Position numbers and translations under genes: made by a program. The notes beneath the pieces were generated by a model, which was not told the origin of the DNA, searched no databases, and saw only the letters and a program-made list of their open reading frames with translations. From an uncultured bacterium (GTDB lineage Bacteria > Electryoneota > Electryoneia > Electryoneales > Electryoneaceae), in the NCBI GenBank assembly GCA_964552465.1, contig CAZKGR010000018.1, positions 6,097 through 70,096 on the forward strand: 64,000 nucleotides of DNA, read 5' to 3'. Shown piece by piece: positions 4,363 to 59,674 of the stretch. How positions within the stretch are numbered: position 1 is the first letter of the stretch; each line of letters begins with the position of its first letter.

Positions 4363-4393
4363 TTTCTATTCCTGATGTGTTCACAGCTATAAA

Positions 4394-9661: not shown

Positions 9662-9741
9662 GAATATCTGAATATATCGTAAGTTAGTTCGGTAAGACCA
9701 CCTCGTCATGATGACTCAACTACGTCGTGAATCGCAGTGAA

Positions 9742-37448: not shown

Positions 37449-37774
37449 TCCGCAGCGTGGCATGGATGAGCTCCATCGTAGGATTGCGCGGTAAACAGGA
37501 ACCGCTGACGATGTATGAATATAGTGAACGTGGGAGAGCCCGTGGAAACTGTCTTTCATCAAATGAGTGGTATGTTGGTACCGCTCAAAGTGGAGGTAAG
37601 TGCAGCTTGCACCCGGGTGGGGGTGAGGCTACCTTCACGCGCTAACGTAAAAAAGCTTTCACACACAAACGTTGTTCCCCTCCGGAGGGAGAGCTGCGCG
37701 AATCTTCGAACGATGCCAGGTGGCAATCAATGGATTCTGTCGCAGACTGGGGATACGCAGGAGATGGATACGAG

Positions 37775-39526
37775 ATGAAGATTAAACTGATGACGCTGTT
37801 TCTCGCCCTGGTAGCGTTGGGAATGCTCTGGGGTTGTGGTGAACGGCTTGGCGACGACGTTGTAATGGTTGTCGATGGTGATGAAATGAGTACCGAAGAG
37901 TTCCGCAACATGGCGCTGCGCAGATTCGGTGGCGAAATGATGTTGGAAACTCAGACCCAGGAAACTATGGACGGATATGTCAATACCGTTCTCGAATCTG
38001 AGTTAATTGCGGTGGACGGGCGTGCGAAAGGCTATGCCAATCGTCCAGAAGTCCTGACCGCATATGAAGAAGCTCGCAACATGGCAGCTATCGGTGAACT
38101 GTACACTCGAGTGATCGTTGACTCGCTGCTGCCGGAAGATTCGCTGAAGGTCTTTTACGAACGCGATGGTTTCGAAATCAACGCATCCCATATCCTAGTT
38201 CGTATTGACGCCGACACAGACTCCGTAGGTGCCTACGAAGAAATCGTTAGCATTCGCAAAACGATTGTTGACGAGAATGAAGTTGTTGATAGCACGGCGT
38301 TTTCCAACGCGGCCGTCAAGTACAGCGAAGACACATCTTCACAAGATGGTAACCTCGGATTTTTCCGGCGTGGTGAGATGGTACCGACATTTGAGAATGT
38401 CGCCTTTGTTACCTCTCCAAATACCATGTCCGAACCAGTATATACCCCGTTTGGCTGGCACCTGATCTTCACCCATGAGATCAATGCCATCGAAGATCGC
38501 CCGACTTTTGAAGAGGATCGGGATCGCATCCAGCAGCTTGCCATGCGTGAACATGGCCAACGACTGGTGACTGCCGCGCGTGAATATGTGTTCGCTCTGG
38601 AAGACTCGCGCGAAGTTGACTTCCAGATGGACAACATCACAACCATCTTTAATACTATTAATCCAAAGCTACCTAATACTGACCCGTTCAGCCTGCTTAC
38701 CGAAGATCAGCTTGAACTGGTGATGGTGACCTACGATACGGGTGAGTACACAGCGGGCGACCTGCGCGAATACGTCCGCCGACATATGAGCAATCGCAAG
38801 TTTGACGATACGGCTATGGTCCGGGCAATAGTTGAGAACTGGATCACAGAAAAAGTACTGCTGCCGGGCGATGCTGAAGCGCGTGGTTTCCTTAGCCTGC
38901 CGATAGTAATGGATCAAGCAAAAGAAGCCTCCGACAATAGAATCCGCCAGATTGTTAATCAGGAATTGAACCAGCTACCCGAGGCGACTGACGAAGAACT
39001 GGTTTCGTACTACGGAGACCACGCTGAAGAGTACATGCTGGATGCGCAGTACACATTGATTGAAGTGCTGGTGTCTGATCGCGAATTAGCCGACAGCATC
39101 AAGGAAATGGCAGAGAGCGGCGAAGAGTCGTTGAAGGATCTGGCTGTTGAGCACACCGAACGTCCTGGAGTACAGGAAAAGGAAGGTATCTTCGGACCCA
39201 TTCGTAAAGCACAATACGGCGCGATTGGTCGGAATGCTGCAACCGCAGAAATAGGCACCGTTGTCGGGCCGCTGCGGGTGCAGGATAAATGGTCGGTGTT
39301 TAAGGTAATCTCGAAGGAAGAGCCGCGTCCAGATGAGTTCGACAACGTTCGCGACAAAGTGAATGTGGACTGGCGTTCATGGGCACGTGATCAGCGTAAG
39401 GAAGCCTACATGGACAGCCTGTTGAACACGATCGATCATACAGTCAACAAGCGTGCGCTGGAAATCACATTCCCGCACACGGTTTGGGCTGGTGAAGGGG
39501 ATGCAGGCGATCAGTCAGATTCGTAA
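37775..39526 (+). CDS. Lipoprotein peptidyl-prolyl isomerase (PrsA/SurA-like, two parvulin domains)
   Basis: Lipobox LWGC; ASHILV, F...A.KYSED..S..GNLG.F.RG.MV..FE..AF, TPFGWHLI. Confidence 0.9.
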   Translation: MKIKLMTLFLALVALGMLWGCGERLGDDVVMVVDGDEMSTEEFRNMALRRFGGEMMLETQTQETMDGYVNTVLESELIAVDGRAKGYANRPEVLTAYEEARNMAAIGELYTRVIVDSLLPEDSLKVFYERDGFEINASHILVRIDADTDSVGAYEEIVSIRKTIVDENEVVDSTAFSNAAVKYSEDTSSQDGNLGFFRRGEMVPTFENVAFVTSPNTMSEPVYTPFGWHLIFTHEINAIEDRPTFEEDRDRIQQLAMREHGQRLVTAAREYVFALEDSREVDFQMDNITTIFNTINPKLPNTDPFSLLTEDQLELVMVTYDTGEYTAGDLREYVRRHMSNRKFDDTAMVRAIVENWITEKVLLPGDAEARGFLSLPIVMDQAKEASDNRIRQIVNQELNQLPEATDEELVSYYGDHAEEYMLDAQYTLIEVLVSDRELADSIKEMAESGEESLKDLAVEHTERPGVQEKEGIFGPIRKAQYGAIGRNAATAEIGTVVGPLRVQDKWSVFKVISKEEPRPDEFDNVRDKVNVDWRSWARDQRKEAYMDSLLNTIDHTVNKRALEITFPHTVWAGEGDAGDQSDS

Positions 39527-40445
39527 CATATCGCTCGTGATAAAGACGGCCGGCTTTCTGCTGGCCGTCTCTCTCATATTGATCCTGGTCGGGTGCGGAC
39601 TAATCAAAAAGGAAGCGCCTGAAGATGCGATTGCAGTTGTGGGCGACACGTGGATCACACAGGAAGATGTTGCAGAGGAACTCGAGTTCCGAGGCCTGAA
39701 TCCTGATGATGAACGCGAGTTCGCACGCTATGTCAACAAGTGGATCGACACTCAACTTCTGCTACATGAAGCATACGAACTTCGACTGCACAAAAACTCA
39801 GAGCTGGTACAACGGATAAGCGACCTTGAAACTGAACTGCTGATCAACAGCTTGCTAGATAGCAATACCGTCGTCGAACCGCCGAACTCGCAAGCCGTCA
39901 TTGATTACTGGAAAGATCACACCGGCGAGTACACCCGCGTCGCAAATGAAGTATCTCTCATCGTGGCATATGTGGAAACGCGAAATCAGGCTTGGCGGCT
40001 GCGGGAAGCGTTTGATCAGTCATCACCGGTCTCGCAAATGCGTGACGAAATTGGTCTGACACGGATTGACACATTGCGACACCTTAGTGTTGATCGTCTA
40101 CCAAATGAGATTTCGACCGGCATCGAGCCTCTACGTTCGGGACACTCCAGCCTGCCGATCGAGTATAACGGTGAGTGGCTGATTGTGAAGCTGGTGGAAC
40201 GCTTTCGAGCTGGTCGACCACGAAGCATAGAAGAAGTTGAATCGCTGGTTGAGGCCAGGATGATTGCGGAACAACGTAGTCGGCTGAAACTGGATTATAT
40301 TGAAGCTCTGCGACGGGAAGCGCGTCAGAGTGGATTTGTTCGCATCCGATTTGCTGACATAGTTTCTGGGAACGAAATAGTACCCGGCGAGATCAGCAAC
40401 GATAGTCTTGAGTCTGGATCAGCTGTCCAGACCACGGAGGAGTAG
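39501..40445 (+). CDS. Lipoprotein PPIase/SurA-N-like foldase
   Basis: Lipobox LVGC; AVVGD..IT, YVNKWID.QLL..EA helical domain; degenerate parvulin (S.PIEY.G.W.IVK). Start uncertain. Confidence 0.8.
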   Translation: MQAISQIRNISLVIKTAGFLLAVSLILILVGCGLIKKEAPEDAIAVVGDTWITQEDVAEELEFRGLNPDDEREFARYVNKWIDTQLLLHEAYELRLHKNSELVQRISDLETELLINSLLDSNTVVEPPNSQAVIDYWKDHTGEYTRVANEVSLIVAYVETRNQAWRLREAFDQSSPVSQMRDEIGLTRIDTLRHLSVDRLPNEISTGIEPLRSGHSSLPIEYNGEWLIVKLVERFRAGRPRSIEEVESLVEARMIAEQRSRLKLDYIEALRREARQSGFVRIRFADIVSGNEIVPGEISNDSLESGSAVQTTEE

Positions 40446-40450
40446 TACAC

Positions 40451-41740
40451 GTGAAATATTTTCATATATCAGCACTTATCATCTTGTTGGCGATGACCGT
40501 TCCATTCGTTCATGCGCAGGACATGCAGGTGGTGGATCGGATTATCGCGGCTGTCGATGACGAGATTATCCTCGAGTCAGAAGTCTTGCAGTATGTGCAG
40601 GATATTGTGCTCCGCAACCGTGATGCCTATCGATCTGAAGAGAGCATCCTGGCACTACAGGCGCAAGTGCTCGACGAATTAATCAACCAGAAGATCCTAC
40701 TATCGATCGCAGAAAATGACACGAATATCGTCGTTGAAGACCGTCAGGTTGACCTGACCCTCGATGACCGAATCAATCAGGTTGTGCGTGAGGTCGGTGG
40801 GGAAGAGGCACTGGAAGAGTATTATGGCAAGCCAATTCGTCAGATCCGTCGTGATTTTCGTGATCAAGTGAGAAACAGCTTGCTCATTGAACGTGTTCGC
40901 AACTACCAGATTAGGTCAACGTCGATCACACGTGCGGAAGTTGAGGGATTTTATGATGAGGTGAAGCAAGAGTTGCCGGCAATCCCGGAACGTGTTCGAC
41001 TGGCACACATCCTGATCGAAATTGAACCAGCAGAGGATGCCCGCAATCAGGCAAAGACACGGGCCGACAGCCTGTTCAATCTCATTGCACAAGGTGCGGA
41101 TTTCGATTCGGTGGCGATGGAATTCTCTGACGACCGCGTAAGTGCGGCCAAGGGTGGATTACTGGGAACGACTCAACGCGGAGATCTCGTCCCCGATTTT
41201 GAAGCTGTCGCATATAATCTGGAAGAAGGCGAGATAAGTGAACCGATTCGCTCCAGATTTGGATTCCACATCATCCGATTGAATTGGCGACGTGGAGAAA
41301 AGATCAACACTCACCACATACTGGTTATGTTGCAAGCTACAGAAAGCGACAAGCAACGAGCAGTTGAAGAAGCACGTCTGCTGCGAGATCGTGCGTTGGC
41401 GGACGAAGAGTTTGCCGAAATCGCGAAAGAGCATTCCGCTGATGATGAAACTGCCAGACTCGGTGGTGATCTAGGGTGGTTTGATTTGGAATCCATCCCG
41501 GAACAGTTCCAACAGGTTGCTCGTGGCTTGGAGACTGGAGATGTAAGCGAACCATTCGAATCGCGCATCGGAATTCACCTGTTGACCGTCAGTCAACGGG
41601 ATGCAACCCGCGAATTTAACTTGATCAACGATTGGGACAGGATCAGCCGGATGGCGTTGCAGGAGAAGCAGGATCGCGAGTATTTCATGTGGTTGGAAGA
41701 ACAGCGCGAAACTGTTTACATCGAATTGATGATGGAATAA
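40451..41740 (+). CDS. surA: SurA-like periplasmic chaperone/PPIase
   Basis: VDRIIA.VDDEIIL.SEV; two parvulin domains (LAHIL, GG.LG...RG..VP.FE, SRFGFHII; HSAD..A..GGDLGW). Confidence 0.9.
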   Translation: MKYFHISALIILLAMTVPFVHAQDMQVVDRIIAAVDDEIILESEVLQYVQDIVLRNRDAYRSEESILALQAQVLDELINQKILLSIAENDTNIVVEDRQVDLTLDDRINQVVREVGGEEALEEYYGKPIRQIRRDFRDQVRNSLLIERVRNYQIRSTSITRAEVEGFYDEVKQELPAIPERVRLAHILIEIEPAEDARNQAKTRADSLFNLIAQGADFDSVAMEFSDDRVSAAKGGLLGTTQRGDLVPDFEAVAYNLEEGEISEPIRSRFGFHIIRLNWRRGEKINTHHILVMLQATESDKQRAVEEARLLRDRALADEEFAEIAKEHSADDETARLGGDLGWFDLESIPEQFQQVARGLETGDVSEPFESRIGIHLLTVSQRDATREFNLINDWDRISRMALQEKQDREYFMWLEEQRETVYIELMME

Positions 41741-41831: not shown

Positions 41832-43643
41832 TTATTGCGTAGAAGATGTAGAATCGAGCAATTCAAGCAATGAGCTTTCACCTGCAAGCAGCTCGTCTGG
41901 TGTGCCAATCTGCGCAACGCGCCCTTGGTCCAAAACAAGCACACGATCGGCCGCTCGAATTGTCGAGAGGCGGTGACTGATTAAAACTGCTGTACGACCG
42001 TTGAGCACGTTTTGTAAACGTGAAACGAGCGCGTGTTCGCTCTTGACATCAAGCGAGCTCGAAGGTTCATCAAGAATGACTACCTGTGAGGGTCTGACCA
42101 GAGCACGTGCGAGTGATAAGCGTTGCCACTGACCCTCGCTGAGATCGACGCTATGATCGAACCAGGTACCGAGCAAAGTGTCATAGCCGTGCGGCAAGCG
42201 GGGGATGAACTCGTCAACGCCTGCATCTTGGGCCGCTCGTAAGATTGCTTCCTCTGATGGCTGATGAGCGGTGTCACCGAGGGCGATATTTTCGCGCACT
42301 GAAGCGTGAAACCTGGCGAAGTCCTGGAAGATCACACTGTACAAACGGCGCAACTGATCCGGGTCGAAGTCACGAAGATCATGTCCATCCAGCGAGATAT
42401 TGCCAGATGTCGGGTCATGGAGCCGTGTCAGCAACTTAACGAGAGTTGTTTTACCTGATCCATTTGCACCAACGATGGCGAGAACTTCCGATGGCTTCAG
42501 ATCGAAAGACACATCCTGCAGCGCCCAGTCCTGGCGGTTCGGATAGCGGAAGGACACATTTTCAACCTTTATCCCAGTGATTAGGTCAGTGGGAACGGCT
42601 GCGGGAAGTGGTGGTGCTGTGATCTGAGGTTCACAGTCAAAGAACTCGAACAGGTTGCCGAGGAACAAGTTGTTCTGATACATGGCCGCGACACCGGTAA
42701 GAATTCGCTGGATCATCGAACCGCCTCGCGCCAGACCCTGAATTACAAGCACCAGCGAACCGATAGTGATCGAACCAACTACCGCATGCCACGATATGAA
42801 TGCATACAATCCGAGAATCACACTAGCGGAAATCGTCTTTGCAATCAATTCAAACCATGACTGCCGTGAGACAATATTCAGCTTTTCCTGCCGCAGTTTG
42901 TCCCGTTGCTGTTTGAACCGATCGCTGAACAACCCACCAAGACCGTAGAGGATCAGCTCTTTTGCGTAGTAAGTGCTGGTCAACACCCAGCTTGAATAAC
43001 GGGCTTGCCGCTCATCCTGGGTACGGCTGCGTTCCCATGCATACCAGCGACGTGAGTAATGCAAACGAATGAAGACGTCTGGCAGAACGGCAATAACGAG
43101 CGCCGGTCCGAGCACCCAATTAACCGAGATCAGCAAACCCGCCACGCCAGTGATCGCGATCAGGTTCTGAAACAGGCTGCCTGCCTCCTGGATCAAACGT
43201 CCGGGACGGGACAAAGCTTCCCGTTGAGCGCGGTGCAAGCTGTCGCGGAACTCGCTGTTCTCGTAGTAAGCAAGCCCGACTGTTATCGATTTACGATGGA
43301 TGCTGTCAAACAGATGGTCAGTAAACTTCTGGACGAGGTGTTGGCGCAACCAACCATCAACTGTTCCCGAACTGATCAGCAGCCAATAGGTTACACCCGC
43401 AGCTATCACGTACCGCATCACCTGGCTCAATCCTTGAGTCGGGTCGGGTAGCTCGATGGCCAGCACAATACTATCGACAATCCACTTGAACAACAGTAAC
43501 TGTACCAGCGGCAAAATGCCACGGAAGATGGAGAAAATCGTGTAGGCTGTGGCCTGCTGCGGGGCGTGCAGCCACAGCATGCGAAGCAGCCGTCCGAGTG
43601 GACGTGCATTTGATGATTTGATTTGCTCAGTATCGAGTGTCAT
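41832..43643 (-). CDS. ABC exporter (TMD+NBD), peptide/RiPP-export type
   Basis: Six-TM domain; GANGSGKT, IFQDF, LSEGQWQRL.LAR, ILDEPSSSLD, ISHRLST. Confidence 0.92.
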   Translation of the reverse strand: MTLDTEQIKSSNARPLGRLLRMLWLHAPQQATAYTIFSIFRGILPLVQLLLFKWIVDSIVLAIELPDPTQGLSQVMRYVIAAGVTYWLLISSGTVDGWLRQHLVQKFTDHLFDSIHRKSITVGLAYYENSEFRDSLHRAQREALSRPGRLIQEAGSLFQNLIAITGVAGLLISVNWVLGPALVIAVLPDVFIRLHYSRRWYAWERSRTQDERQARYSSWVLTSTYYAKELILYGLGGLFSDRFKQQRDKLRQEKLNIVSRQSWFELIAKTISASVILGLYAFISWHAVVGSITIGSLVLVIQGLARGGSMIQRILTGVAAMYQNNLFLGNLFEFFDCEPQITAPPLPAAVPTDLITGIKVENVSFRYPNRQDWALQDVSFDLKPSEVLAIVGANGSGKTTLVKLLTRLHDPTSGNISLDGHDLRDFDPDQLRRLYSVIFQDFARFHASVRENIALGDTAHQPSEEAILRAAQDAGVDEFIPRLPHGYDTLLGTWFDHSVDLSEGQWQRLSLARALVRPSQVVILDEPSSSLDVKSEHALVSRLQNVLNGRTAVLISHRLSTIRAADRVLVLDQGRVAQIGTPDELLAGESSLLELLDSTSSTQ

Positions 43644-43750: not shown

Positions 43751-44644
43751 CTAACGTGAGGGTACATCAAGGTATGGCTGCAGTATTTCCCAGAATGGAT
43801 CCTCGAGGGTCAAGTCAAGTAGAATCCCCCTCAACGAACGTGAGTACCGTTCAGATTGCTCAAATACTCGTTTCCGAACTTGAGTGAGATCTGGAGGAGG
43901 CAATGATGTCCAGGCTCGACGGAATATTTGTTCGCACGCTTGCTTCAGATAGTTCGACGTGGCGGCGTGCTGCAATTGTTCGAGCGAAACCTTCTGCGCC
44001 TGACGAAGGAAGACAACAGTATGAATTGGAATTGCGGTTGTTGACGGCCAAACCTGGTCGATATTGCGTAATACCAGATCACTCCATGTCGGCATCGGAT
44101 GAGCGAACAACCCCGCATCAGTCTGCACCAACCAGCACTCATCATCGTTGACCGTTTCCCATTCGGACGGGAGACGTCGCATCGTAGTAGATTTGCCAGT
44201 CCCTCCCGGCGCGGCAAAGAGAACACCTTTTTCACCATACACACCCAGCCCGGCATGGATAGGCAGATTCCCAGCCCGCAAAAGAGCAGGGTAGAGGGGA
44301 TACTGACCGTACCACATACTCATCAACCAATCCTTACGATTGGAACGATCTGGAACCTCATAAACATGTGTTTCTGTCCCTGGGAGTGTGTACACGCGTA
44401 ATGGCCCCAAGTCGAACTCGTTGCACTGAGTTTGATTTGTTCCCAAAAAGGTCAGGCAGGCATCAAGTTCGGTATGCGTGACAACGTATATAGTCCATTT
44501 ATCGGCCTGGTTATTTCCTTCCTCTGACGGCAGAGAGAGAACCGAAGCAAACTTCCGTAGCCAATCAATCCCAGCTGAAACGGCTCGAAAAGTCCAGCGG
44601 GTTTCATCAGCAAGAACAAGTGAAACCGACAAATCAGTCGTCAT
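43751..44644 (-). CDS. SynChlorMet cassette ScmC-like protein (HPr kinase-like P-loop)
   Basis: L.LADETRW N-terminus; PIHAG, GVLFAAPGGTGKST..RRLP..W....DDEC.LV, AHPMPTWSD; adjacent to a PqqD gene. Confidence 0.75.
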   Translation of the reverse strand: MTTDLSVSLVLADETRWTFRAVSAGIDWLRKFASVLSLPSEEGNNQADKWTIYVVTHTELDACLTFLGTNQTQCNEFDLGPLRVYTLPGTETHVYEVPDRSNRKDWLMSMWYGQYPLYPALLRAGNLPIHAGLGVYGEKGVLFAAPGGTGKSTTMRRLPSEWETVNDDECWLVQTDAGLFAHPMPTWSDLVLRNIDQVWPSTTAIPIHTVVFLRQAQKVSLEQLQHAATSNYLKQACEQIFRRAWTSLPPPDLTQVRKRVFEQSERYSRSLRGILLDLTLEDPFWEILQPYLDVPSR

Positions 44645-44915
44645 GGTAAATAAGTTTGTTCTGAATCAGGCTGTCGATGAACTCCTCAACATCCTGCTTG
44701 AGTGTGGTTGGAGGGGGAACAAAAAAAACCTGCAATTGCGCGATGATTTCTTCAGGGGTTATCCCCTCATGAATCATGGCCCAAATGCGGGTTCCAAGAC
44801 TGTTTATGCTGTAGGCCCGGTCTGTTCCGGGGTGGTACAACACTCCACCGCTAGTTGAATCATCGCGAAAAACAACGGAGGATTCTGTCACGAGGACAGA
44901 AGAGTTACCTGGCAT
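44634..44915 (-). CDS. PqqD family RiPP recognition element (ScmD-like)
   Basis: VVFR......GVLYHP.T...YSIN.LG..IW.MI......EEI..L........L..DV.EFI..L....LI. Confidence 0.88.
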   Translation of the reverse strand: MPGNSSVLVTESSVVFRDDSTSGGVLYHPGTDRAYSINSLGTRIWAMIHEGITPEEIIAQLQVFFVPPPTTLKQDVEEFIDSLIQNKLIYHDD

Positions 44916-44930
44916 GGGAACGTCGCCCGA

Positions 44931-45101
44931 TTACAACCACTCAAACGAATCCGACTCCTGCTGTTGATCCTGCCTCTTCTCTTCACCATCCCCCGGATCG
45001 TTCTGCGCCGGTGGGTCCGGTTCAGAAAACCCATGGGCAACGTCGAGGAGCAAGGAAAGCTCAGTAAGCAGGGGTTTATCATATCCCACGCTTTTCTTCA
45101 C
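44931..45101 (-). CDS. Putative RiPP precursor peptide, 56 aa
   Basis: AGGAGG RBS 5 nt before GTG 45101; MKKSVGYDKPLLTELSLLLDVAHG-FSEPDPPAQNDPGDGEEKRQDQQQESDSFEWL; YxxPxL RRE-binding motif; 15 nt upstream of the PqqD gene. Confidence 0.75.
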   Translation of the reverse strand: MKKSVGYDKPLLTELSLLLDVAHGFSEPDPPAQNDPGDGEEKRQDQQQESDSFEWL

Positions 45102-45702
45102 GAGTGCCTCCTGATACAATATCAATTCGAATTCGATGGTGTGAAAGTCGTGCACTAAGAATTGTAACACGCATCAGCACCGAATATGCTGCTAAAATAT
45201 CCTCAATGCACCCCCTAAACACACCAAGAGCTCTCATCTCGGGTGATTTCGCGACTGACAATCGGACCATTGAAAATTGTCGGTGCATCAGATTTTTAAA
45301 AATCCGACATCTGCTCTTCAATAGCAATGACGCAGATCACAGGAAACGTCGATCAAGAGATGTAAAGAGAGGCATGGCCTCAAACGATGGCTCGAGGGTA
45401 CTCTGGAACAATTTCAGAACTATCTTGTTGTGCTTAAGCTCTGGACCGAGTACATTCCGTTGGATGTCGGCGCGAATTTCTAATACTTACTCCGAGTCCG
45501 AAGAATTTGATGCCGATAATGTGTTCTCCAACACAGCAAATTGCAATTCAGGCATGTAGATTTTTGGAATCTTGCTTGAGTAAATTGATGCGATGCACCT
45601 TGTCCGATGTCCAGTGACCGATAACTACATGATGACGGAGTACACTATTTCGTGTTCTACGCGTCGTTTACCTGCTGTTCTAACAATCAGGGAGACTTTA
45701 TC

Positions 45703-48102
45703 ATGAGGTCTTCGATTCTCTTTGTTAGCATTTTGGTCGTCTTCGTTTTGCTGACAGCTATTCCTGTACAGGCACAGATCAACAACGCCGACTTTGAAAA
45801 CTGGACGGGTGATAATCCAGATAGTTGGACGATCGTTGAAACTGGCAACAATGAGGTCCGCGAGGACGCGTTCGCGTACAGCGGATCAGCTTCTGCTGAG
45901 TTGGTGTGCCCGTCATATTCACGTCCGCGATTGGTCCAGTATATCAATGTTGAGGCGAACGAGGCGGTAACGGCCAATTTGTTCGTGTATGACAACGAAG
46001 CATCATACACACGCTTGTATCTAAAAGTGTATGACAATGACGGATTGCTGCTTCTTCAAGATTATGACCAGTCTGCAAACTCTGGAAGCTGGCAGGCGTT
46101 AAACGTTGATCTTGTAACTCCCGCAAGTTCCGCGGAAATCAAATTTGAAGTCATCTATTTCTATGACACAGGCACCCCAGGAACGCAGACGAACTACATC
46201 GACTTTGCAGAAATCACGATTAGCGTTCCGACATTTGCCAACATCGAAAACCCTGGTTTGGAAGATTGGACTGGTGGCGTACCTGACAGCTGGACGGTGA
46301 TCGAACCCCTTAACAGCGATGTTCAGCAGGAAACTGGCACTGTCTACGAGGGTTCGTATTCTGCTTCCGTTACCTCGACAGCCTATGTACGTCCACGAAT
46401 GGTACAATTCCTGGGTGTGTATCCAGGTGACACGGTTACCGGACGTGTACAGATTCTTGATAACGATCCTTCTTTGCCGCGCCTGTATCTGAAAGCTTAC
46501 GACTACGATGGTACACTGATTCAGCAGAGTTTTGCATCTGCGACCAACAATGCTGCATGGCAGAATGTTGAGACAACGTTGGTAACACCATCAACAACGG
46601 CTTATGTCAAATTTGAAATCATCCAATTCTACAACACTACGTCAGGTGGTACACAAACCATCTATGTGGATGCTGCCGAGTACGAAGTAGACACATACAC
46701 ATTCGATGTCAGTACTGCCAACCAGTGGTACTTCATAGGTCCTCCAGTGGACATAACTGACCAGGGGGATAGAAACGCAGACCAGCTGTTCAGCGATGAC
46801 CTCGGCGGAGCGAGTACATCCTCCACATGGGTCATGAGCCGTTGGAACAACACGACTCAAGCGTATGAGCGCTTTGGTAATGGTGATGGCGATCCGCTCA
46901 CGGAACCGCCAGATATTGAACCGGGTATTGGATACTGGTTTGTTCAGGATGTGGAACCTGGAGTTTCCGATCCCTGGCTGGACATCACCAGTGCCCAGAC
47001 ATCAACTGGTGCTCCTTCTTCAGACGTTACCCAAGACATCATTGGGCAGACTGGAGGCGAGAACGGTGTCACCATGTTGGCAAACCCGTTCTACGGTGAT
47101 TTCACTGTCTCAGCGTCGGTTCTGACCGCAAGTGGTTCTCCCTCTGACTGGGGGCAGGACGGAATAAACTCAAACATTTACACGTGGGATGGGTCACAGT
47201 ATCTCATCCAGCTTGCTGAATCTGCCACACTTGGCATGTGGGACGGATTCTGGGTTGTCAAAACGACCACGGGTGATGGTGACATTACATTTACCTACGA
47301 TAGCGGTGACCACGGTCCAGTCATTGATGACTACTTCGTTGAAACCGGTTGGGGATTGCAGCTCTGCGTTGAGTCTCTGGATGGTACATATCTTGATACC
47401 TACAACGAGCTCGGAGTCCGTGATCGTTCGTTAGATGGCTACGATAGCTACGATGCCTTCGAAATGACGCCACCGAGTTCCAGATATGTCAGCCTTGCGT
47501 TTACCCATGAAAACTGGGATGAAGGACGCCGGTTTGCACATGACTATCGTGACAAAGAATTTGATCGGGATAGCTGGAACTTTGAGATAAAAGCCCGTCG
47601 TCTGCCGAACAGCTCATTCAGACTCTATTGGCCTGCGTTGCAAGGAGTCCCAGGAAATATCGAGTTCGAACTGTACCGTTACAATCAACAGAGTATTGTT
47701 CGAGTTGGACTATTGAGTGAGCTCGATGACTACGTCTTCACGGTCGGTGATGAGGATGTTGAGGTCGTTAGATTCCGCATCATTGCCTTAGATCAAGACC
47801 TGGTAGCCAGCGTTGACGAACCTGGTGCTGAACTACCGGTTGAGTTCGGCATACATTCAGCCTATCCGAATCCGTTCAACGCGCAGATATCCATCAAAAT
47901 GGGACTGCCGGATGCGGGTAACGCTACAATGACGGTGTTTGACATTCTGGGTCGCGAGGTCGCCAGCTTACATAACGGACACTTGAACGCTGGTTCCCAT
48001 ACGTTCACGTGGGAAGCGAAAGATCACGCGTCAGGCATCTACTTCCTCCGCTTGTCGTCTGGTGAACAGGTTTCGCATCGCAAAGTGACTCTACTTCAGT
48101 AG
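45703..48102 (+). CDS. T9SS cargo with two tandem CBM4/9-like jelly-roll domains and CTD
   Basis: Signal peptide (VQA|QI); two ~150-aa repeats (N..FE.W.G..PD.W ... YID.AE); AYPNPFNA...SGIYFLRL...RKVTLLQ. Confidence 0.8.
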   Translation: MRSSILFVSILVVFVLLTAIPVQAQINNADFENWTGDNPDSWTIVETGNNEVREDAFAYSGSASAELVCPSYSRPRLVQYINVEANEAVTANLFVYDNEASYTRLYLKVYDNDGLLLLQDYDQSANSGSWQALNVDLVTPASSAEIKFEVIYFYDTGTPGTQTNYIDFAEITISVPTFANIENPGLEDWTGGVPDSWTVIEPLNSDVQQETGTVYEGSYSASVTSTAYVRPRMVQFLGVYPGDTVTGRVQILDNDPSLPRLYLKAYDYDGTLIQQSFASATNNAAWQNVETTLVTPSTTAYVKFEIIQFYNTTSGGTQTIYVDAAEYEVDTYTFDVSTANQWYFIGPPVDITDQGDRNADQLFSDDLGGASTSSTWVMSRWNNTTQAYERFGNGDGDPLTEPPDIEPGIGYWFVQDVEPGVSDPWLDITSAQTSTGAPSSDVTQDIIGQTGGENGVTMLANPFYGDFTVSASVLTASGSPSDWGQDGINSNIYTWDGSQYLIQLAESATLGMWDGFWVVKTTTGDGDITFTYDSGDHGPVIDDYFVETGWGLQLCVESLDGTYLDTYNELGVRDRSLDGYDSYDAFEMTPPSSRYVSLAFTHENWDEGRRFAHDYRDKEFDRDSWNFEIKARRLPNSSFRLYWPALQGVPGNIEFELYRYNQQSIVRVGLLSELDDYVFTVGDEDVEVVRFRIIALDQDLVASVDEPGAELPVEFGIHSAYPNPFNAQISIKMGLPDAGNATMTVFDILGREVASLHNGHLNAGSHTFTWEAKDHASGIYFLRLSSGEQVSHRKVTLLQ

Positions 48103-48277: not shown

Positions 48278-49927
48278 TTGCCAGATATGTTGAACGGTCA
48301 ATCTGAAACGAATATGAGTTCAATGAAACTCACCTATAACGGCGGCAGCATGCGCTCGCTGTTTCGCCAGGGGGATCGTTTACGTGTACAGCCATGTCTG
48401 GTGACCGATGTCCGGGCTGGGGATGTCATTGTTTATCTAAATCGTTCACGAGACAGACATGTTGTGCATAGAGTAATGCACATTCTGTCTAGCGGCTTTG
48501 AGACTAGAGGTGATGATCGAATTACTGCTGACAAGGAACTGGTAATACCCGATCAGTTTGTCGGACGTGTGATAGCAGTCTGGAGATCACATTCATGGAA
48601 ACCTGTACGGGGAGGTATAGTTGGATTAATTCGGTCAAGACTTTGGCAGTCAATGAGAATGGTGCATCATTCTGTACTCACACGCTCCATACGCATGGAG
48701 AGTGCAACTTCACCTGTTTCCAACCCTGATGTCATTTTACTCCCACATTGGCTTCTTCAACTGCTTCAATCTTGCCTCAGAGGTACTCTACAAAGTGAGA
48801 TAAACAAGATTCCAGAGAATGTCTGGCCAAGTCTGGTGGCGCTTGCATCCAGACAAGATCTTGCCCCTTTTATTTATGCCAATCTGAATCAGCAGGATGC
48901 GTTGGACGAGCTTCCAGCAAGCGCACAAAAACAACTTCATCATTTGCACCAGAATTCTTGGATTGCGCAGCAACGTTTAATGACTGCACATACTTCCATC
49001 ACACATGCTCTGAATGAAGCAAGTATCGACAGCATTTCTCTAAAGGGATTGTGGTTTGCGCACTCGCTCTACGAGGATCCAGCATCTCGCCCGATGGTTG
49101 ATATTGATCTGCTTGTCCGTCCTGAACAGCTGACTGCAGCGACCGATGTGTTCATCGAGCTGGGATACGTCTCTATCCAGGAACATGATTCCGTTTCGCT
49201 TGAAAAAGAAATCTGGCTGTATCATCCGGAACGTCGAATCAAGGTTGACCTGCACCAGGATCTGATACCCTATTACTCAGATCTTACGTGGGATACATCA
49301 GAATGCTGGACTCGTGCCATACAAGCGGATTTGGAAGGACAACCGATTCAGGTGTTGAGTCTCGAAGACCAAATGATGCATATAATCCTTCATGGTTCCT
49401 TCGAACACCTGTTTCAGCCGCATAAAGTACTTCTGGATGCATACCTGGCAATTCAGACCTGGGGAGCAGAGGTTGATTGGAAGCGAGTCAGGGAGAGGGC
49501 AGAGACTATTGGACTAGGGCATGCACTTGACCTAATGGTTGTAACTCTACGACGTGCTTTCGACGATCACAGCATGACTCTTCCTGCACCAATCAGACAT
49601 GTTCCTGCTGACGGAGTTCGCTGGTTACTCTATACCGCGCCGATTCTCCATCCACCATCGTTGCTTCATCTGTATGCCGGACGTGACTACTTGTTCTACG
49701 TCCTGAAGCGTGCTCGCCAACTGGCGACCTTCCTTCGAAGTGGGGTACAGTCTCAAGGTGGGATACAGGTTACTCGTTCTAAACCAAAAATGGTTGCCAA
49801 AACTATTATTAGACGGATGTTCACGTTGAGTGGGCTGACCGCAGGATTTCTTTATGGCTCCATTCGCCACCCATCCCGCAAGCAGTTTATCTTCCTCAAG
49901 CTGCTCAATTGGCTGAGTCATCGCTAA
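48278..49927 (+). CDS. Fusion of S24/S26 peptidase domain and RiPP-associated nucleotidyltransferase (NTP_transf_5-like)
   Basis: N-terminal GGSM..F..GD.L.V...GDVIVY...VVHRV......ETRGD; C-terminal W..L...A..Q.L.P, LKG...A..LY.....RPM.DIDLLV, VDLH. One uninterrupted frame; start uncertain (48278/48287/48314). Confidence 0.82.
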   Translation: MPDMLNGQSETNMSSMKLTYNGGSMRSLFRQGDRLRVQPCLVTDVRAGDVIVYLNRSRDRHVVHRVMHILSSGFETRGDDRITADKELVIPDQFVGRVIAVWRSHSWKPVRGGIVGLIRSRLWQSMRMVHHSVLTRSIRMESATSPVSNPDVILLPHWLLQLLQSCLRGTLQSEINKIPENVWPSLVALASRQDLAPFIYANLNQQDALDELPASAQKQLHHLHQNSWIAQQRLMTAHTSITHALNEASIDSISLKGLWFAHSLYEDPASRPMVDIDLLVRPEQLTAATDVFIELGYVSIQEHDSVSLEKEIWLYHPERRIKVDLHQDLIPYYSDLTWDTSECWTRAIQADLEGQPIQVLSLEDQMMHIILHGSFEHLFQPHKVLLDAYLAIQTWGAEVDWKRVRERAETIGLGHALDLMVVTLRRAFDDHSMTLPAPIRHVPADGVRWLLYTAPILHPPSLLHLYAGRDYLFYVLKRARQLATFLRSGVQSQGGIQVTRSKPKMVAKTIIRRMFTLSGLTAGFLYGSIRHPSRKQFIFLKLLNWLSHR

Positions 49928-52537: not shown

Positions 52538-53362
52538 CTACACATCCTGCTTCCTGAACAGAATGATCGAGGCGAGGATTGGAAGCACAATCCAGGCCAC
52601 CAATGACGCATATCCGATCAGGGTTGCAGTGGTCTCTGATCCGGTCATCTTGATCAATGTCGCGCCTGCCGGTCCGAAGAGGTGCGGCCCGCCGACAGCC
52701 AGAAGTGAGAGAACTCTTGTCAAATCTATCGGATTGAGCAGAAGCCCGACCAGCAGGATGATCTTTAACGCGGACGGTGTGAAATAAAGAGTACTGCCCA
52801 ACATCAGGGTGCCGTATAGCACTTCGAAAAACAACCACACTCCTAACGCAATCCCAAAAGCCACCTGACGTCTGGATGACAGCAACGCGATTAATACAGA
52901 TAACGCAGCAAAAACCACACTCAGCAACGTTGAATGAAGCACGACTTCCAGGTAACGAAGCGCGCCATCAGTTCCCACGCTAATCGCGGTTATCGCACCC
53001 GGTAATCCAAAGCCCAGAATGGACGCGGCGACAATTGTCATAACCAACCCGAGCAATTTTCCCAATAAAACCTGATCGCGGGATATTGGTTGAACGACAA
53101 GAAACTCCAAGTATTGTCGATGTGCGAGAAAGCTGAAAACTCCCACTATCAACGCAAATAACGGCAGCATGAAGCCCGACAGATTTACCAGACTGGCGGC
53201 GGTGCGAATAAAATCCTGTATTCCCACATACCCTGAGGTGACCATTCCCAGATAGGCGATGAGCAGGGTCAACACTGTAAATACTATCGCAAAGGTCAAC
53301 ACCCAGCGGTTGCGAACGTTGATCAGGAATTCCTGACGAGCAATGAGGAGTAGCCCATTCAT
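52538..53362 (-). CDS. nosY: ABC permease NosY
   Basis: IARQEF....RNRW, QPISR..VLLGK..G, LNP.D..R, six TMs; nos context. Confidence 0.88.
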   Translation of the reverse strand: MNGLLLIARQEFLINVRNRWVLTFAIVFTVLTLLIAYLGMVTSGYVGIQDFIRTAASLVNLSGFMLPLFALIVGVFSFLAHRQYLEFLVVQPISRDQVLLGKLLGLVMTIVAASILGFGLPGAITAISVGTDGALRYLEVVLHSTLLSVVFAALSVLIALLSSRRQVAFGIALGVWLFFEVLYGTLMLGSTLYFTPSALKIILLVGLLLNPIDLTRVLSLLAVGGPHLFGPAGATLIKMTGSETTATLIGYASLVAWIVLPILASIILFRKQDV

Positions 53363-54108
53363 AGTTGCCCTTCCTCATCAGTGTGTGCTCCGGCTACACG
53401 TATCATACCATAACTAAATCCAGTTTCATCCACTATTGGAAATCCAGCGCCAGGTAGCGTCAACAGCAGCCTGATTTCAACCATCTCGTCTGCATCGGGA
53501 AGCGTTAAGGCAGCCATGTTCGAGTAACCGCGAACCGACAGCACTTTACCAGCGAGTTCAGGTTCGTATGCGAGGCGCAGCAGCAGCAAATTCCCTTTCT
53601 CCGCTTCGATCAGATCCGGTTGCATGCCGACAGGGGACAGGGAGGCTTCAACGATCAGATCAGGATTTCCTCGCAGCGTCTGAAACCCTATCCAATCGGT
53701 GACGACCTCATCGTCGTATGCTGAAAACGAGTCTGCCGCATCGGTCGATGAAAAGCAAACAACCTGTCCATTCATCACGGTCGGAACGTGGTTCGTCAAA
53801 ACCATCACCACTGAGTCCGCCGAAACAAGCGCGGACGTGTTGTAGTCCGCCAAGTAGATGTCTGAGTCACGTATGACGAAAGACTTGGGAAGAGATTCAA
53901 TGTGTCGAAGCATGCACTTGGGCGAGTCGTAGGTGAGGAACTCACCCCCGACCACCATCCCACTCGCATGATTAACCTGATCGATGTTCATGTTGCAGGT
54001 ATGGCAAACATCAATTCCCGAATAAATTTGAATTCTCGGTTCTGATGCGCAACCAGCCAGCAGGATGGCGAACACGACCACGAGAAATGACTGTTTCATG
54101 GAATTCAT
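53359..54108 (-). CDS. nosL: NosL copper chaperone lipoprotein with ~110-aa C-terminal extension
   Basis: Lipobox LAGC; D.CHTCNMNI, YDSPKCM, VPTVMNG..V.F. Confidence 0.82.
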   Translation of the reverse strand: MNSMKQSFLVVVFAILLAGCASEPRIQIYSGIDVCHTCNMNIDQVNHASGMVVGGEFLTYDSPKCMLRHIESLPKSFVIRDSDIYLADYNTSALVSADSVVMVLTNHVPTVMNGQVVCFSSTDAADSFSAYDDEVVTDWIGFQTLRGNPDLIVEASLSPVGMQPDLIEAEKGNLLLLRLAYEPELAGKVLSVRGYSNMAALTLPDADEMVEIRLLLTLPGAGFPIVDETGFSYGMIRVAGAHTDEEGQL

Positions 54109-55052
54109 GTGCGCTCCAGGTCTTCCTTTGATGTGAATTGGTCAGACAACAGTGAATCCCAATCAGGATTTTCGGTACGGAACTCCTCAATCTGTCCGCC
54201 TGCTGCTTCAATGGCTTTGATCACATGCAGACGCTGCTCAGGATTAGCACGGAAGGACATTCGGTAGCCGTTCTGGTCTGTTAATCTCGCGCCAGCTTCA
54301 CAGGCTGCAGAGATTAATTTCTCTGATGTCTGCTGAAGTACGAGGTGGACCTCCGTTTCATTCTGGACGGCTTCGTAAAAGTCAGGCACAGATTCAACCG
54401 TAGCAATTTTACCGTCGTTCACAATAGCTACTCGATCCGCCAACTGCAGAGCATCTCTAATGATATGCGATGTAAAAAGTATGGTTGCGCCCCGACCTTT
54501 AAGCTGTCCAATCAACTTTCGAAACTGTTCAGTTCCAAGTGGATCAAGGTTCAATGTTGGTTCATCCAAAACGTAAAACGGAACTTCAGGCAGGAAGCAA
54601 ATAGACAAGGCTAATCGTTGAATCATCCCACCCGAATACTCCTGTACACGACGATCAGCGGCATCCTGCAATGAAAAGAAGGTGATCATTTCTTCGACAC
54701 GATCAGCCTTACAATCCCGCAGTTCCGCAGAGAGGAACAGCAATTCACGAGCGGTCAGCATTCCGGGAAAATCAATGCGCTGTGGTAAATATGAAAGAAC
54801 GTGTTTGATCTTATCGACTTGTTTCCGAACGTTCATTCCAGCGACTTCGATCGTCCCGCTAGTCGGGTGGATTGCACCCACAACTGCACGTATGATTGTC
54901 GATTTACCACCGCCATTTGGCCCGAGCAATGCAAGCGCCTCACCCTCAGACACATCCAGGTCGCTGGGTTTTACTGCATGGATCTTCCCAAATCGTTTTT
55001 CAAGCGACTTTATTCTCAGATATGGCATATCCTGGTCTGTTCCCGTCTTCAT
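54105..55052 (-). CDS. nosF: ABC ATP-binding protein NosF
   Basis: GPNGGGKS, YLPQR, YSGGM.QRL, LDEPT..LDP.G, TSH; between nosD and nosL. Confidence 0.88.
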   Translation of the reverse strand: MKTGTDQDMPYLRIKSLEKRFGKIHAVKPSDLDVSEGEALALLGPNGGGKSTIIRAVVGAIHPTSGTIEVAGMNVRKQVDKIKHVLSYLPQRIDFPGMLTARELLFLSAELRDCKADRVEEMITFFSLQDAADRRVQEYSGGMIQRLALSICFLPEVPFYVLDEPTLNLDPLGTEQFRKLIGQLKGRGATILFTSHIIRDALQLADRVAIVNDGKIATVESVPDFYEAVQNETEVHLVLQQTSEKLISAACEAGARLTDQNGYRMSFRANPEQRLHVIKAIEAAGGQIEEFRTENPDWDSLLSDQFTSKEDLERT

Positions 55053-56473: not shown

Positions 56474-56480
56474 TACAGGC

Positions 56481-56978: not shown

Positions 56979-57012
56979 GTAACCTCCCTGTCTGGGGGTA
57001 ATTGCGTAAACT

Positions 57013-57636: not shown

Positions 57637-57699
57637 GATCACACCTGAGTTGATCTGCCCGGCGAGTTTGGCTAGCTCGCCGGGCAAGAATGAAACAAC

Positions 57700-59601: not shown

Positions 59602-59674
59602 CCTTCCGCCTCCCAATGTTTACTATCTTCTGCGTTCACTGTTTGTCGAAAAATGGTACAGACTCATCTATAGA

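Follow-up and report, generated by a model that had tools for sequence, protein, structure and literature searches.

The open reading frame at 45101..44931 on the minus strand of the 64-kb stretch of DNA analysed here (the window) was confirmed, by sequence comparison, to be a real conserved peptide gene, and the first one in an uncharacterised peptide-maturation operon. Genes for a PqqD-family protein, ScmC and an ABC exporter follow it in this order. A gene for a T9SS-sorted protein diverges from the precursor gene, and past it, 3.2 kb from the precursor and on the opposite strand, lies a gene in which an S26-type signal-peptidase-like domain is fused to a nucleotidyltransferase (NTase). The features are as follows:

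44931..45101, minus strand: precursor peptide gene, 56 aa (translation, orthologues and codon-level selection)
45101-45030, 45029-44934 and 44933-44931, minus strand: leader codons, core codons and stop of the precursor, respectively
45107..45112, minus strand: Shine-Dalgarno sequence AGGAGG, read from the sequence, with a CACTC spacer (5 nt) before GTG
44634..44915, minus strand: PqqD-family protein, putative leader-binding RRE, 93 aa (Pfam PqqD, 7e-13)
43751..44644, minus strand: ScmC, putative ATP-dependent peptide kinase with P-loop GGTGKST, 297 aa (TIGR04249)
41832..43643, minus strand: ABC exporter, 603 aa (Pfam ABC_membrane, residues 33-301; ABC_tran, 375-528)
45652..48102, plus strand: T9SS-sorted protein, 816 aa, oriented divergently to the precursor gene (Por_Secre_tail, 3.8e-12; module at about 350-727)
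48278..49927, plus strand: fusion protein, 549 aa (S26/ER-type signal-peptidase-like domain at about 13-120, putative leader peptidase; NTP_transf_5, 181-428)

Translation of the precursor gene starts at GTG (45101-45099), stops at TAA (44933-44931) and yields VKKSVGYDKPLLTELSLLLDVAHGFSEPDPPAQNDPGDGEEKRQDQQQESDSFEWL, that is, a leader of 24 aa (VKKSVGYDKPLLTELSLLLDVAHG) followed by a core of 32 aa, which runs FSEPDPP...ESDSFEWL and contains 3 Ser, no Cys, 10 Asp or Glu and 2 Lys or Arg. The elements named in the initial annotation, YDKPLL, VAHG, the His that stands in place of Thr at position -2 and the SDSFEWL end, were all borne out by this translation. When the entire 64 kb was translated in six frames, the composite motif (leader, then small-x-G) turned up a single time. 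No Pfam or NCBIfam match was found for the peptide; the Amphi-Trp domain (TIGR04354), considered as a possible relative of its Trp-containing acidic tail, gave no NCBIfam match at E up to 10. An Rfam search of the 41-50.5 kb region returned no match, and the number of sites found in a scan for sigma-70 promoters and terminators did not exceed the chance expectation.

Orthologues of the precursor were found in five related genomes. When small ORFs upstream of related PqqD genes were compared, as had been proposed earlier, similar peptides appeared at an unchanged position in L001, L002, L004 and L008. The ScmC proteins of these four share 52-59% identity with that of the window; P0124 and P0126 are additional orthologues. 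Their linker varies in length by whole codons, and synonymous codon differences far outnumber non-synonymous ones. Between the window and L002, there are 13 synonymous and 3 non-synonymous codon differences in the leader and FSEPDPP, and 3 and 1, respectively, in the final 9 codons. Judged by these codon comparisons, the precursor is under purifying selection. A 448-nt contig from a marine-sediment metatranscriptome, about 91% identical to the window, spans exactly positions 44795-45240, thus containing the 5' UTR, the precursor and the start of PqqD, and between 45007 and 45117 it shows no nucleotide change. This one contig, to which the RNA evidence is limited, is weak evidence for transcription in a relative, because it may stem from DNA carry-over.

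The precursor family comprises 68 unique peptides, over which motif rules were counted. Their common pattern begins with a Y-E-K-P-x-L leader, continues after a constant spacing with [AS]-x-G and then S/T-E-P-P-P-P, and closes with an acidic tail that varies. Y-x-K-P-x-L is kept in 68/68 of them, and canonical ScmC loci retain it in their Cys-rich precursors; with a PqqD gene beginning 15 nt past the precursor stop, this strengthens the earlier proposal that the leader is of the RRE-binding type. In 59 of the 68 peptides, the spacing between the leader motif and [AS]-x-G is constant. The suggestion that the core Ser residues are phospho-acceptors held only in part. Although a kinase-fold protein, ScmC, is indeed encoded, the C-terminal Ser pair is conserved only within the window's own clade, and the hydroxyl conserved family-wide is that of the first core Ser, in FSEP (66/68). 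In relatives, SDS is replaced (REPFEWL, EEAYDWL, DVPFDWVD), and the family alignment contains no conserved acceptor besides the Ser/Thr next to the cut site. A C-terminal Ser acceptor of the kind used by PadeK and PsmK is not supported, as only 1/56 family members end in Ser and SDS is not retained.

The PqqD gene overlaps the start of ScmC by 11 nt. Its product reaches 49.2 bits against Pfam PqqD (cut-off, 23.4), 29.5 bits against ScmD (TIGR04248; cut-off, 100) and about 30 bits, likewise below the cut-off, against lasso PqqD models. ScmC scores 147.9 bits against TIGR04249 (cut-off, 125) and carries a precomputed PF27840 assignment. It models as a PEPCK/HprK-like P-loop fold: in a Foldseek search with the AF2 model (pLDDT 92.8), the top matches were PEP carboxykinases (E 5e-10 to 1e-6, TM about 0.5), hhalign aligned ScmC with HprK-related kinases (probability 94%, E 1e-7) over 58 columns around the P-loop, and a canonical ScmC matched Hpr_kinase_C at 5e-4. 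Searching the PDB with the ScmC sequence gave nothing meaningful, and its score against HprK_rel_A was only 12.7 bits. The invariant motifs of ScmC are GxxGxGK[ST]T and DD, and its invariant residues H130, G150, K151, T153, D167 and D168. The ABC exporter, which keeps its position in L001, L002, L004, L007 and L008, has no peptidase-domain match in Pfam; removal of the leader by the transporter is therefore unlikely.

The fusion protein matches TIGR02228 at 2e-13 over residues 17-99 (50.5 bits, slightly below the NCBIfam cut-off of 51.85) and PF14907 at 3.2e-46. Its GGSM, VHRV and TRGDD align with S26 proteins that other ScmC loci encode in genes of their own, and across ten S26 domains from such loci GGSM and VVHRV correspond to a near-invariant Ser and an invariant His, with SMRS in place of SMxP and GDD in place of GDN in the window. 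ER/archaeal (SipW-like) type I signal peptidases have GxSM, VHRV and GDN/GDD in common with this domain, and the small amino acids that signal peptidases prefer at -3 and -1 agree with the conserved [AS]-x-G. In contrast to them, the window domain has no membrane anchor (no transmembrane segment was predicted in the fusion protein, the top 19-residue mean hydropathy being 0.98) and is predicted to be cytoplasmic. It shares one protein with the NTase and presumably acts on a RiPP-type leader, not on a Sec signal peptide. The occurrence of an S26/ER-type domain with conserved Ser/His motifs, along with the fixed spacing of [AS]-x-G, speaks for the idea put forward in the initial annotation that A-x-G may be a signal-peptidase-type site. 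A literature search for PF14907 brought up only an unrelated study of phosphonate biosynthesis.

Comparison of about 90 ScmC loci revealed that the usual cassette consists of PqqD, two radical-SAM genes, a Cys-rich precursor, ScmC and S26, with NTase and ABC genes in many cases. A first scan of the genome collection with the initial ScmC alignment yielded 6 loci only, the chosen patterns being too narrow; relatives of ScmC number more than 600 in the protein collection and occur in at least 318 metagenomic loci. The metagenomic survey covered 80 ScmC loci, and components were counted only in those with enough flanking sequence. S26 directly follows ScmC in 30/49 of them, NTase is present in 16 of the 28 having at least 3 kb downstream, PqqD in 21 of the 24 having at least 3.5 kb upstream, and two radical-SAM/SPASM enzymes (ScmE and ScmF) in 17/24 with enough upstream sequence. 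ScmC and S26 are fused in L010, as are S26 and NTase in the window clade, while L013, L045 and L093 have PqqD, ScmC and NTase without S26.

The window locus is a radical-SAM-free version of this cassette. No radical-SAM gene was found in the window with Pfam and NCBIfam, CxxxCxxC is absent from the first 200 residues of its ORFs of at least 200 aa, and every Pro-run-type locus examined is devoid of radical-SAM genes, whereas Cys-rich relatives have two. These findings fit the previous remark that thioether chemistry is unlikely for a Cys-free core, and a canonical sactipeptide- or ranthipeptide-like SCM product was rejected, the window locus having neither radical-SAM genes nor Cys. The components of the window cassette also recur at a distance: the gene order is precursor-PqqD-ScmC-S26-ABC-NTase in L007 (Ca. 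Electryonea), precursor-PqqD-NTase-ScmC-S26 in L096 and precursor-PqqD-ScmC-S26-NTase in L101, all three radical-SAM-free and with S26 and NTase as separate, collinear genes. Window ScmC is only 22-29% identical to ScmC proteins outside its own clade, and it branches close to the root of a rough NJ tree.

One of the closest known systems is SynChlorMet, which is defined computationally (TIGR04252 ScmA, TIGR04249 ScmC, TIGR04248 ScmD and two radical-SAM/SPASM enzymes) and for which we found no published chemistry or characterisation. Knowledge of this cassette has so far been confined to database annotation, and the window defines a Cys-free branch of it. The window shares with SynChlorMet a ScmC scoring above the curated cut-off, a PqqD partner, and S26 peptidase, NTP_transf_5 and ABC exporter as recurrent neighbours. 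On the other hand, it has no radical-SAM enzymes, its S26 is fused to NTase and placed on the diverging arm, and its precursor is Cys-free, acidic and Pro-run-bearing rather than Cys/Gly/Ser-rich. The sole shared part of the precursors is the leader, [YW]-E-K-P-x-L-x-[DE]-L, and the ScmA model, which recognises the canonical Cys-rich L011 precursor at 4.7e-5, did not match the window peptide at E up to 10.

The locus also has the general layout of RiPP clusters, in which a small precursor gene adjoins genes for an RRE and for maturation enzymes, the leader being conserved and the tails variable, and it resembles the pathways of paeninodin and pseudomycoidin. There, a YxxPxL leader is recognised by the RRE (B1/PqqD), the precursor in its linear form is the substrate of an HprK-superfamily P-loop kinase, an uncharacterised NTase extends the phosphate and an ABC exporter is present (PMC8498205, PMC6993621); the window likewise has YxxPxL and PqqD, although ScmC belongs to another family than these kinases. 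PadeK and PsmK phosphorylate Ser, PsmN puts hexose on the phosphate, and NTases of lasso pathways are occasionally fused to leader peptidase B2 (PMC8498205, PMC6993621). PsmK-dependent phosphorylation needs D158/D159, the counterparts of the Asp-Asp pair of ScmC (PMC6993621). The NTase domain of the window matches a Deinococcus NTase-B2 fusion. A Deinococcus psychrotolerans plasmid (L098) encodes a small peptide, PqqD, an HprK-like kinase and an NTase-leader peptidase fusion with no cyclase annotated nearby, and its peptide ends in NNDWEF, aromatic and acidic like that of the window; a Thalassobaculum plasmid (L100) has NTase, ABC transporter, PqqD and B2 protease. These cyclase-less 'HprK-related kinase A/B' cassettes (TIGR04352, TIGR04355) differ from the window in their B2 transglutaminase-like peptidase, another kinase family and unrelated leader and core. 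Plasmid pNP243 of the cultured organism Butyrivibrio fibrisolvens (L099) encodes PqqD, an S24/S26 peptidase, a kinase-like protein that stands between ScmC and HprK_rel_A/B, and a small peptide that combines the leader motif Y-V-K-P-E-L with L-E-G. ABC and NTase genes lie nearby, but this cassette differs in its Cys-rich core, glycosyltransferases and lack of a Pro-run motif.

We lean, with moderate confidence, towards the view that the precursor is the substrate peptide of a radical-SAM-free SynChlorMet (ScmC/ScmD) maturation cassette, and that it is matured in the following way. The adjacent PqqD-family RRE would bind the leader through Y7-D-K-P-L-L...E-L and present the peptide to ScmC, which would phosphorylate a hydroxyl, the best candidate acceptor being core Ser2 within the conserved G-[FW]-S-E-P-P-P-P. 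The NTP_transf_5 domain may then extend that phosphate, by analogy to the action of PsmN after PsmK in pseudomycoidin, and lasso pathways supply a precedent for such a pair of kinase and NTase genes. The leader would be cut off after A22-H-G24 by the soluble, NTase-fused S26-type Ser/His peptidase, and the ABC exporter would release a linear, strongly acidic peptide with an FSEPDPP start and an aromatic F-E-W-L end. Thus, the most likely product, as far as its chemistry can be deduced from the genes, would be a leader-guided linear phosphorylated peptide, perhaps further decorated, which is cut after A-x-G and exported. Two points argue against the kinase step: ScmC is only distant kin of the proven peptide kinases, and the C-terminal Ser targeted by lasso kinases is missing here. 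Other points weigh against the proposal as a whole: the S26 domain departs from SMxP and GDN and scores slightly below its cut-off, its gene lies on the opposite strand past the T9SS gene, the PqqD protein stays below the ScmD cut-off, and the precursor has no ScmA match.

A competing reading, which we consider rather doubtful, is that ScmC is not a tailoring kinase but an ATP-using partner of the S26 leader peptidase, and that PqqD, ScmC, S26 and ABC form a generic module which recognises, cuts and exports. Radical-SAM enzymes would exploit this module in canonical cassettes, and here it would deliver a near-unmodified linear peptide (e.g. a signal) or one modified by the NTase only. The tight pairing of ScmC with S26, which are neighbours in most of the loci counted above and fused in L010, would be explained by participation in leader cleavage no less well than by tailoring. 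ScmC is also retained where two radical-SAM enzymes evidently do the chemistry, a single Ser/Thr beside the cut site is the only conserved acceptor, and PMC9266682 describes lasso leader cleavage as ATP-dependent. However, three loci combine PqqD, ScmC and NTase without S26, the tested relatives of the fold (HprK-type PadeK and PsmK) are phosphotransferases, and the presence of an NTase suggests that there is a phosphate for it to extend, all of which speaks against this reading. A lasso precursor with its cyclase and B2 protease encoded elsewhere has the slightest probability of all the readings weighed here, despite the YxxPxL leader adjoined by a PqqD-like RRE, which is a lasso hallmark, the score of this PqqD against lasso models, and the kinase, NTase and ABC genes, i.e. 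the accessory set of paeninodin and pseudomycoidin clusters. Neither an Asn-synthetase-like macrolactam synthetase (Pfam/NCBIfam, cluster genes and large ORFs of the window) nor a transglutaminase-like B2 leader protease was found among the window ORFs scanned, the S26-type Ser/His domain being supplied in place of the B2 cysteine protease, and no cyclase is annotated in L001, L002, L004, L096 or L101. Apart from His in place of Thr at -2 and the want of a C-terminal Ser, the core would open with Phe instead of Gly, Ala, Ser or Cys, and positions 7-9, one of which should be Asp/Glu, are Pro, Ala and Gln, so that the geometry is wrong and a lasso peptide was rejected; the initial annotation, which spoke of a lasso-like leader lacking Thr(-2), agrees with this. 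It is also very improbable that the ORF arose by chance, or that it encodes a small acidic regulator rather than a maturation substrate. The peptide is short, of low complexity and unmatched in Pfam and NCBIfam, but codon-level purifying selection, a fixed place upstream of PqqD in every related locus and the same leader rules obeyed by 68 family members contradict such an origin.

Somewhat less improbable, yet still unlikely, is that the peptide serves the adjoining surface protein, a T9SS-sorted one or, in one subgroup, one of the PEP-CTERM type, as a ligand, maturation factor, inhibitor or attached moiety, the cassette and this protein forming one functional unit. In blastp comparisons, the 816-aa protein was 28-34% identical over about 450-600 residues, tail included, to precursor-adjacent proteins of L007 (two), L095, L102 and L103. 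The shared module of about 370-470 residues is found directly beside Pro-run-type precursors, in the window clade and in these loci of other lineages, and the remaining T9SS proteins of the window have only the sorting tail in common with the 816-aa protein. In L095, the precursor is flanked by two T9SS genes and there is no ScmC on the contig, and a subgroup of precursors (MKYEKPELVEIEGF...) adjoins exosortase and PEP-CTERM genes. These sequence relationships make it possible that the 816-aa protein is a partner of the precursor system. Against this stands the fact that ancestry and function are confounded, because all these loci stem from T9SS-rich lineages, that a hybrid histidine kinase occupies the position of the T9SS gene in L096, and that a mechanism is not evident. 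The module has no recognisable family, a PDB profile search matched only its FlgD-like tail, and its single-sequence model had a pLDDT of 31.

If maturation by phosphorylation and a role of the surface protein are taken together, a broader and rather speculative proposal, which we hold to be improbable as a whole, would be that Pro-run precursors form a new class of ribosomal peptides which are linear and free of Cys. Maturation by a PEPCK/HprK-fold kinase, NTP_transf_5 and a cytoplasmic signal-peptidase-like protease would leave their new N-terminus with a phospho- or phospho-glycosyl/nucleotidyl-Ser, and they would act together with a surface protein dedicated to them, sorted by T9SS or exosortase and bearing the conserved module, as an undescribed peptide and surface-protein system.

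SynChlorMet has been present in protein-family databases for years without published chemistry that we could find in the literature, and a radical-SAM-free locus with a Cys-free substrate is the simplest setting in which to determine the roles of ScmC, the widespread PF14907 nucleotidyltransferase and the soluble signal-peptidase-like protease. The precursor rules (Y-E-K-P-x-L, 12 residues, [AS]-x-G, S/T-E-P-P-P-P) can be used directly for genome mining. If the proposed maturation is true, the RiPP repertoire would gain an S26 type of leader peptidase and possibly a phospho-based modification, and the accessory genes shared with phosphorylated lasso peptides would be explained. The recurrent pairing with T9SS surface proteins hints at a biological role of these peptides in uncultured marine bacteria of the FCB group.

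The precursor gene is the first of a tight minus-strand operon that continues with genes for a PqqD family protein, ScmC (the P-loop protein of the SynChlorMet, or SCM, cassette) and an ABC exporter. The genes of the cluster and its flank in the window are:

44931-45101, minus: precursor ORF (GTG start at 45101, TAA stop at 44933-44931, AGGAGG 6 nt upstream)
44915-44634, minus: PqqD family protein (Pfam, 7e-13), beginning 15 nt past the precursor stop
44644-43751, minus: ScmC, 297 residues (TIGR04249, 147.9 bits, cut-off 125), with an 11-nt overlap with PqqD
43643-41832, minus: ABC exporter, 603 residues, no peptidase-domain match
45652-48102, plus: T9SS-sorted protein, 816 residues
48278-49927, plus: fusion of a signal-peptidase-like domain (S26) and a nucleotidyltransferase (NTase), 549 residues (TIGR02228 and PF14907)

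The N-terminus of the fusion resembles archaeal/ER-type signal peptidase I (TIGR02228, 2e-13), and its residues 181-428 form an NTP_transf_5 nucleotidyltransferase (PF14907, 3e-46). The remaining content of the window consists of housekeeping genes and a nos cluster (52538-59616, minus strand; NosZ with a cupredoxin domain, NosD, ABC ATPase, NosL and ABC-2 permease); nos accessory genes, from NosD to the ABC-2 permease, also adjoin the S26-NTase gene in L001, a locus of the window clade. Three successive SurA/PPIase-type periplasmic chaperone paralogues of 598, 330 and 429 aa (37730-41740, plus strand) adjoin the exporter gene, and the same trio borders the cluster in the related loci L001, L002 and L004. 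A cytochrome P460 gene lies between the exporter and SurA genes in L001 (13056-14111) and L002 (13132-14115); the window and L004 are free of this insertion.

The initial annotation had described a leader containing YDKPLL and ending in VAHG, devoid of the lasso Thr at -2, followed by a Cys-free acidic core of 32 residues with three Ser. Both motifs are present in the translated ORF, whose product has 56 residues (VKKSVGYDKPLLTELSLLLDVAHG FSEPDPPAQNDPGDGEEKRQDQQQESDSFEWL); position -2 is His, and the 32-residue core lacks Cys and has three Ser, ten acidic residues and two basic ones. Similar peptides, on which that interpretation depended, are encoded by orthologous ORFs at the same location in five related genomes, where ScmC identity is only 52-76%. 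The leader motif followed by small-x-G occurs once in the six-frame translation of the whole 64-kb window. Over the leader and FSEPDPP, pairs of distinct genomes differ by 8-14 synonymous versus 2-5 non-synonymous codons, and differences in the last nine codons are likewise mostly synonymous; the mid-core region is variable, and its length changes by whole codons. A metatranscriptome contig of 448 nt from a relative (marine-sediment run X6, in which DNA carry-over is possible), about 91% identical, runs precisely from the 5' UTR through the precursor to codon 40 of PqqD. On these grounds taken together, the precursor gene is more than a chance ORF; the finding is real, and its initial interpretation is largely backed by the context. 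Between 45007 and 45117 (minus strand), a stretch that takes in the ribosome-binding site and the initial ~32 codons, there are zero nucleotide changes relative to the X6 contig, and differences are frequent on either side. In close relatives, extra constraint may act on synonymous sites of the leader; synonymous changes there do occur in more distant orthologues.

An alignment of the window peptide with its relatives, used as query, retrieved a family of 68 unique peptides. The leader [YFW]-E-K-P-x-L-x-E-[IL]-x-L-L-D-E-S, with Gly exactly 18 residues past the aromatic residue, was found in 57 of the 68, and Ala or Ser precedes this Gly at -3 in 59. A Pro run, typically [FW]-S-E-P-P-P-P, lies no more than 10 residues from the leader Gly (63/68), Ser or Thr is sited between the two (66/68), and the core is Cys-free in 63 peptides. 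Tails are variable, acidic or Gly-rich, with endings such as FEWL, YDWL, FDWVD, PDWP, KWKSRQW and DDALGM; among the 56 peptides whose cores have 18 residues or more, 37 have Trp, Phe or Tyr in the last five positions and one has a C-terminal Ser.

Relatives of ScmC number more than 600 in the protein collection and occur in at least 318 metagenomic loci, 80 of which, with the earlier loci, were annotated with phmmer seeds from Pfam-annotated loci. In the usual arrangement, PqqD is followed by two radical-SAM/SPASM genes, then by one or several precursors, ScmC and an S26-like peptidase; many loci also have the NTase and ABC genes. PqqD lies upstream of ScmC in 21, and radical-SAM genes in 17, of 24 loci with at least 3.5 kb of upstream sequence. 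In the 28 loci with at least 3 kb downstream, S26 follows in 21, NTase in 16 and an ABC exporter in 11; S26 is the gene directly after ScmC in 30 of 49 loci with enough sequence. In a Syntrophorhabdaceae locus (L010, 9710-11218), after two radical-SAM genes, ScmC itself carries a C-terminal S26-like domain, a Rosetta-stone link between the two; together with the S26-NTase fusion of the window clade, it ties the parts of the cassette to one another. The S26 domains of ScmC loci retain a Ser box, GxSMxP, which reads GGSM in the window domain, and a GDN box, which there reads GDD; the His of VHRV is invariant. Because it has no hydrophobic segment, the window fusion is expected to be active in the cytoplasm. 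MKYEKPxLxxL opens the canonical precursors, and Cys/Gly/Ser/Thr-rich repeats follow it; the curated model of the cassette precursor, ScmA, recognises one of these precursors but not the window peptide.

Radical-SAM genes are absent, and the same enzymes present, in every readable Pro-run locus (the window clade, L007 of Ca. Electryonea clarkiae, L096 and L101/L102); they are also absent from three shorter or sparser ones (L016, L103 and L049/L097). A rough neighbour-joining tree without support values places the ScmC proteins of most Pro-run loci close to its root and apart from the main group linked to radical-SAM genes; the radical-SAM-free form thus seems to be an old variant and not the outcome of a recent deletion.

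The HPr kinase catalytic domain belongs to the PEP carboxykinase fold superfamily, and the best PDB matches of a confident AlphaFold model of ScmC (pLDDT 92.8, alignment of 39 family members) are PEP carboxykinases (E 5e-10 to 1e-6, TM ~0.5). One canonical ScmC matches Pfam Hpr_kinase_C (5e-4), ScmC proteins match NCBIfam HprK_rel_A weakly, and, when ScmC was compared profile to profile with the HprK-related kinases that Deinococcus and Butyrivibrio have in PqqD-containing cassettes, the His and P-loop core aligned at 94% probability (E 1e-7). His130, Gly150, Lys151, Thr153 and Asp167-Asp168 are invariant, and the other P-loop glycines nearly so. The model, the HprK-type matches and the invariant P-loop and Asp pair make ScmC very probably an ATP-using phosphotransferase. 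In the lasso kinase PsmK, the equivalent Asp pair is needed for phosphorylation (PMC6993621).

The following pathway is proposed by analogy and from conservation. PqqD would bind the Y-x-K-P-x-L leader, as B1 proteins bind such a leader in lasso pathways, and ScmC would use ATP on the PqqD-bound peptide. The initial annotation had named the three Ser residues, two of them near the C-terminus, as candidate acceptors. As the only hydroxyl kept family-wide is that of the Ser/Thr one to a few residues past A-x-G, Ser2 of the window core is the best candidate; the SDS near the C-terminus is clade-specific, and the family-wide candidate is therefore Ser2 and not that pair. The phosphate made by ScmC may next be extended by the NTase. 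In pseudomycoidin, PsmN adds hexoses and requires the phospho-Ser made by PsmK, and some lasso-cluster NTases form one protein with the leader peptidase B2 (PMC8498205, PMC6993621). The window NTase domain matches an NTase-B2 fusion in Deinococcus, and the S26-NTase protein follows that plan with another protease. The S26 domain would cleave past the small-x-small site A22-H-G24, and the ABC exporter would release the peptide. The main rival to decoration of the product is that ScmC serves the S26 peptidase instead, which would explain both the near-constant pairing of the two and their fusion.

The T9SS-sorted protein has a C-terminal module common to proteins directly beside Pro-run-type precursors elsewhere, namely in Electryonea (twice), one Calditrichota contig (L095), L102 and L103:

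L007, 1633-3801 and 4701-9446: T9SS-module proteins
L095, 1893-4727: T9SS-module protein
L102, 351-2711: T9SS-module protein
L103, 3-1601: T9SS-module protein

In blastp the module, sorting tail included, is 28-34% identical over ~450-600 residues, and we recognised no known family for it. The N-terminal parts are unlike each other (FG-GAP or LVIVD repeats), and three other T9SS proteins of the window have only the sorting tail in common with the precursor-side protein. It is possible that the peptide and a sorted surface protein are functionally linked. In L007 such a protein stands before each of two precursor and PqqD pairs (3894-4374 and 9463-9928), and there is only one ScmC-S26-ABC-NTase set. 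A precursor subgroup with MKYEKPELVEIEGFKxAEG-SPPPPP and ScmC directly after it (L049, 1660-1791; L097, 4295-4435), in whose loci no PqqD, S26 or NTase was detected, lies beside a related protein of ~245 residues; the L097 copy has a PEP-CTERM motif, and exosortase EpsH/EpsI genes adjoin this precursor in place of a T9SS-module gene.

Set against the SCM cassette, the window locus has ScmC but lacks the radical-SAM enzymes and an ScmA precursor, and is best called a new form of this computationally defined system. It would work like the accessory half (RRE, HprK-type kinase, NTase, exporter) of phosphorylated lasso pathways. A lasso pathway proper was rejected, since the large ORFs scanned across the window include no Asn-synthetase-like cyclase and no transglutaminase-like protease; nor do they include a radical-SAM enzyme. 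Our literature search found no paper on SynChlorMet or ScmC, and none in which an RRE is combined with a kinase and a signal-peptidase-type protease. Plasmids of Deinococcus, Thalassobaculum and Butyrivibrio carry cassettes that lack a cyclase but have B2 or S24/S26 peptidases, and such accessory-only sets are therefore widespread. On the Deinococcus psychrotolerans plasmid (L098, 801-7272), genes for PqqD and an HprK_rel_B-like kinase accompany those for a peptide of 63 aa, whose last residues are NNDWEF, and for an NTase-B2 fusion that bears the label 'lasso peptide biosynthesis B2 protein'; the annotation shows no cyclase in the vicinity. Plasmid pNP243 of Butyrivibrio fibrisolvens (L099, 5617-7640) encodes PqqD, an S24/S26 peptidase, a kinase-like protein and a Cys-rich peptide of 57 aa whose leader contains YVKPEL, close to NTase, glycosyltransferase and ABC genes; its host is a cultured rumen bacterium, and could be an experimentally tractable relative.
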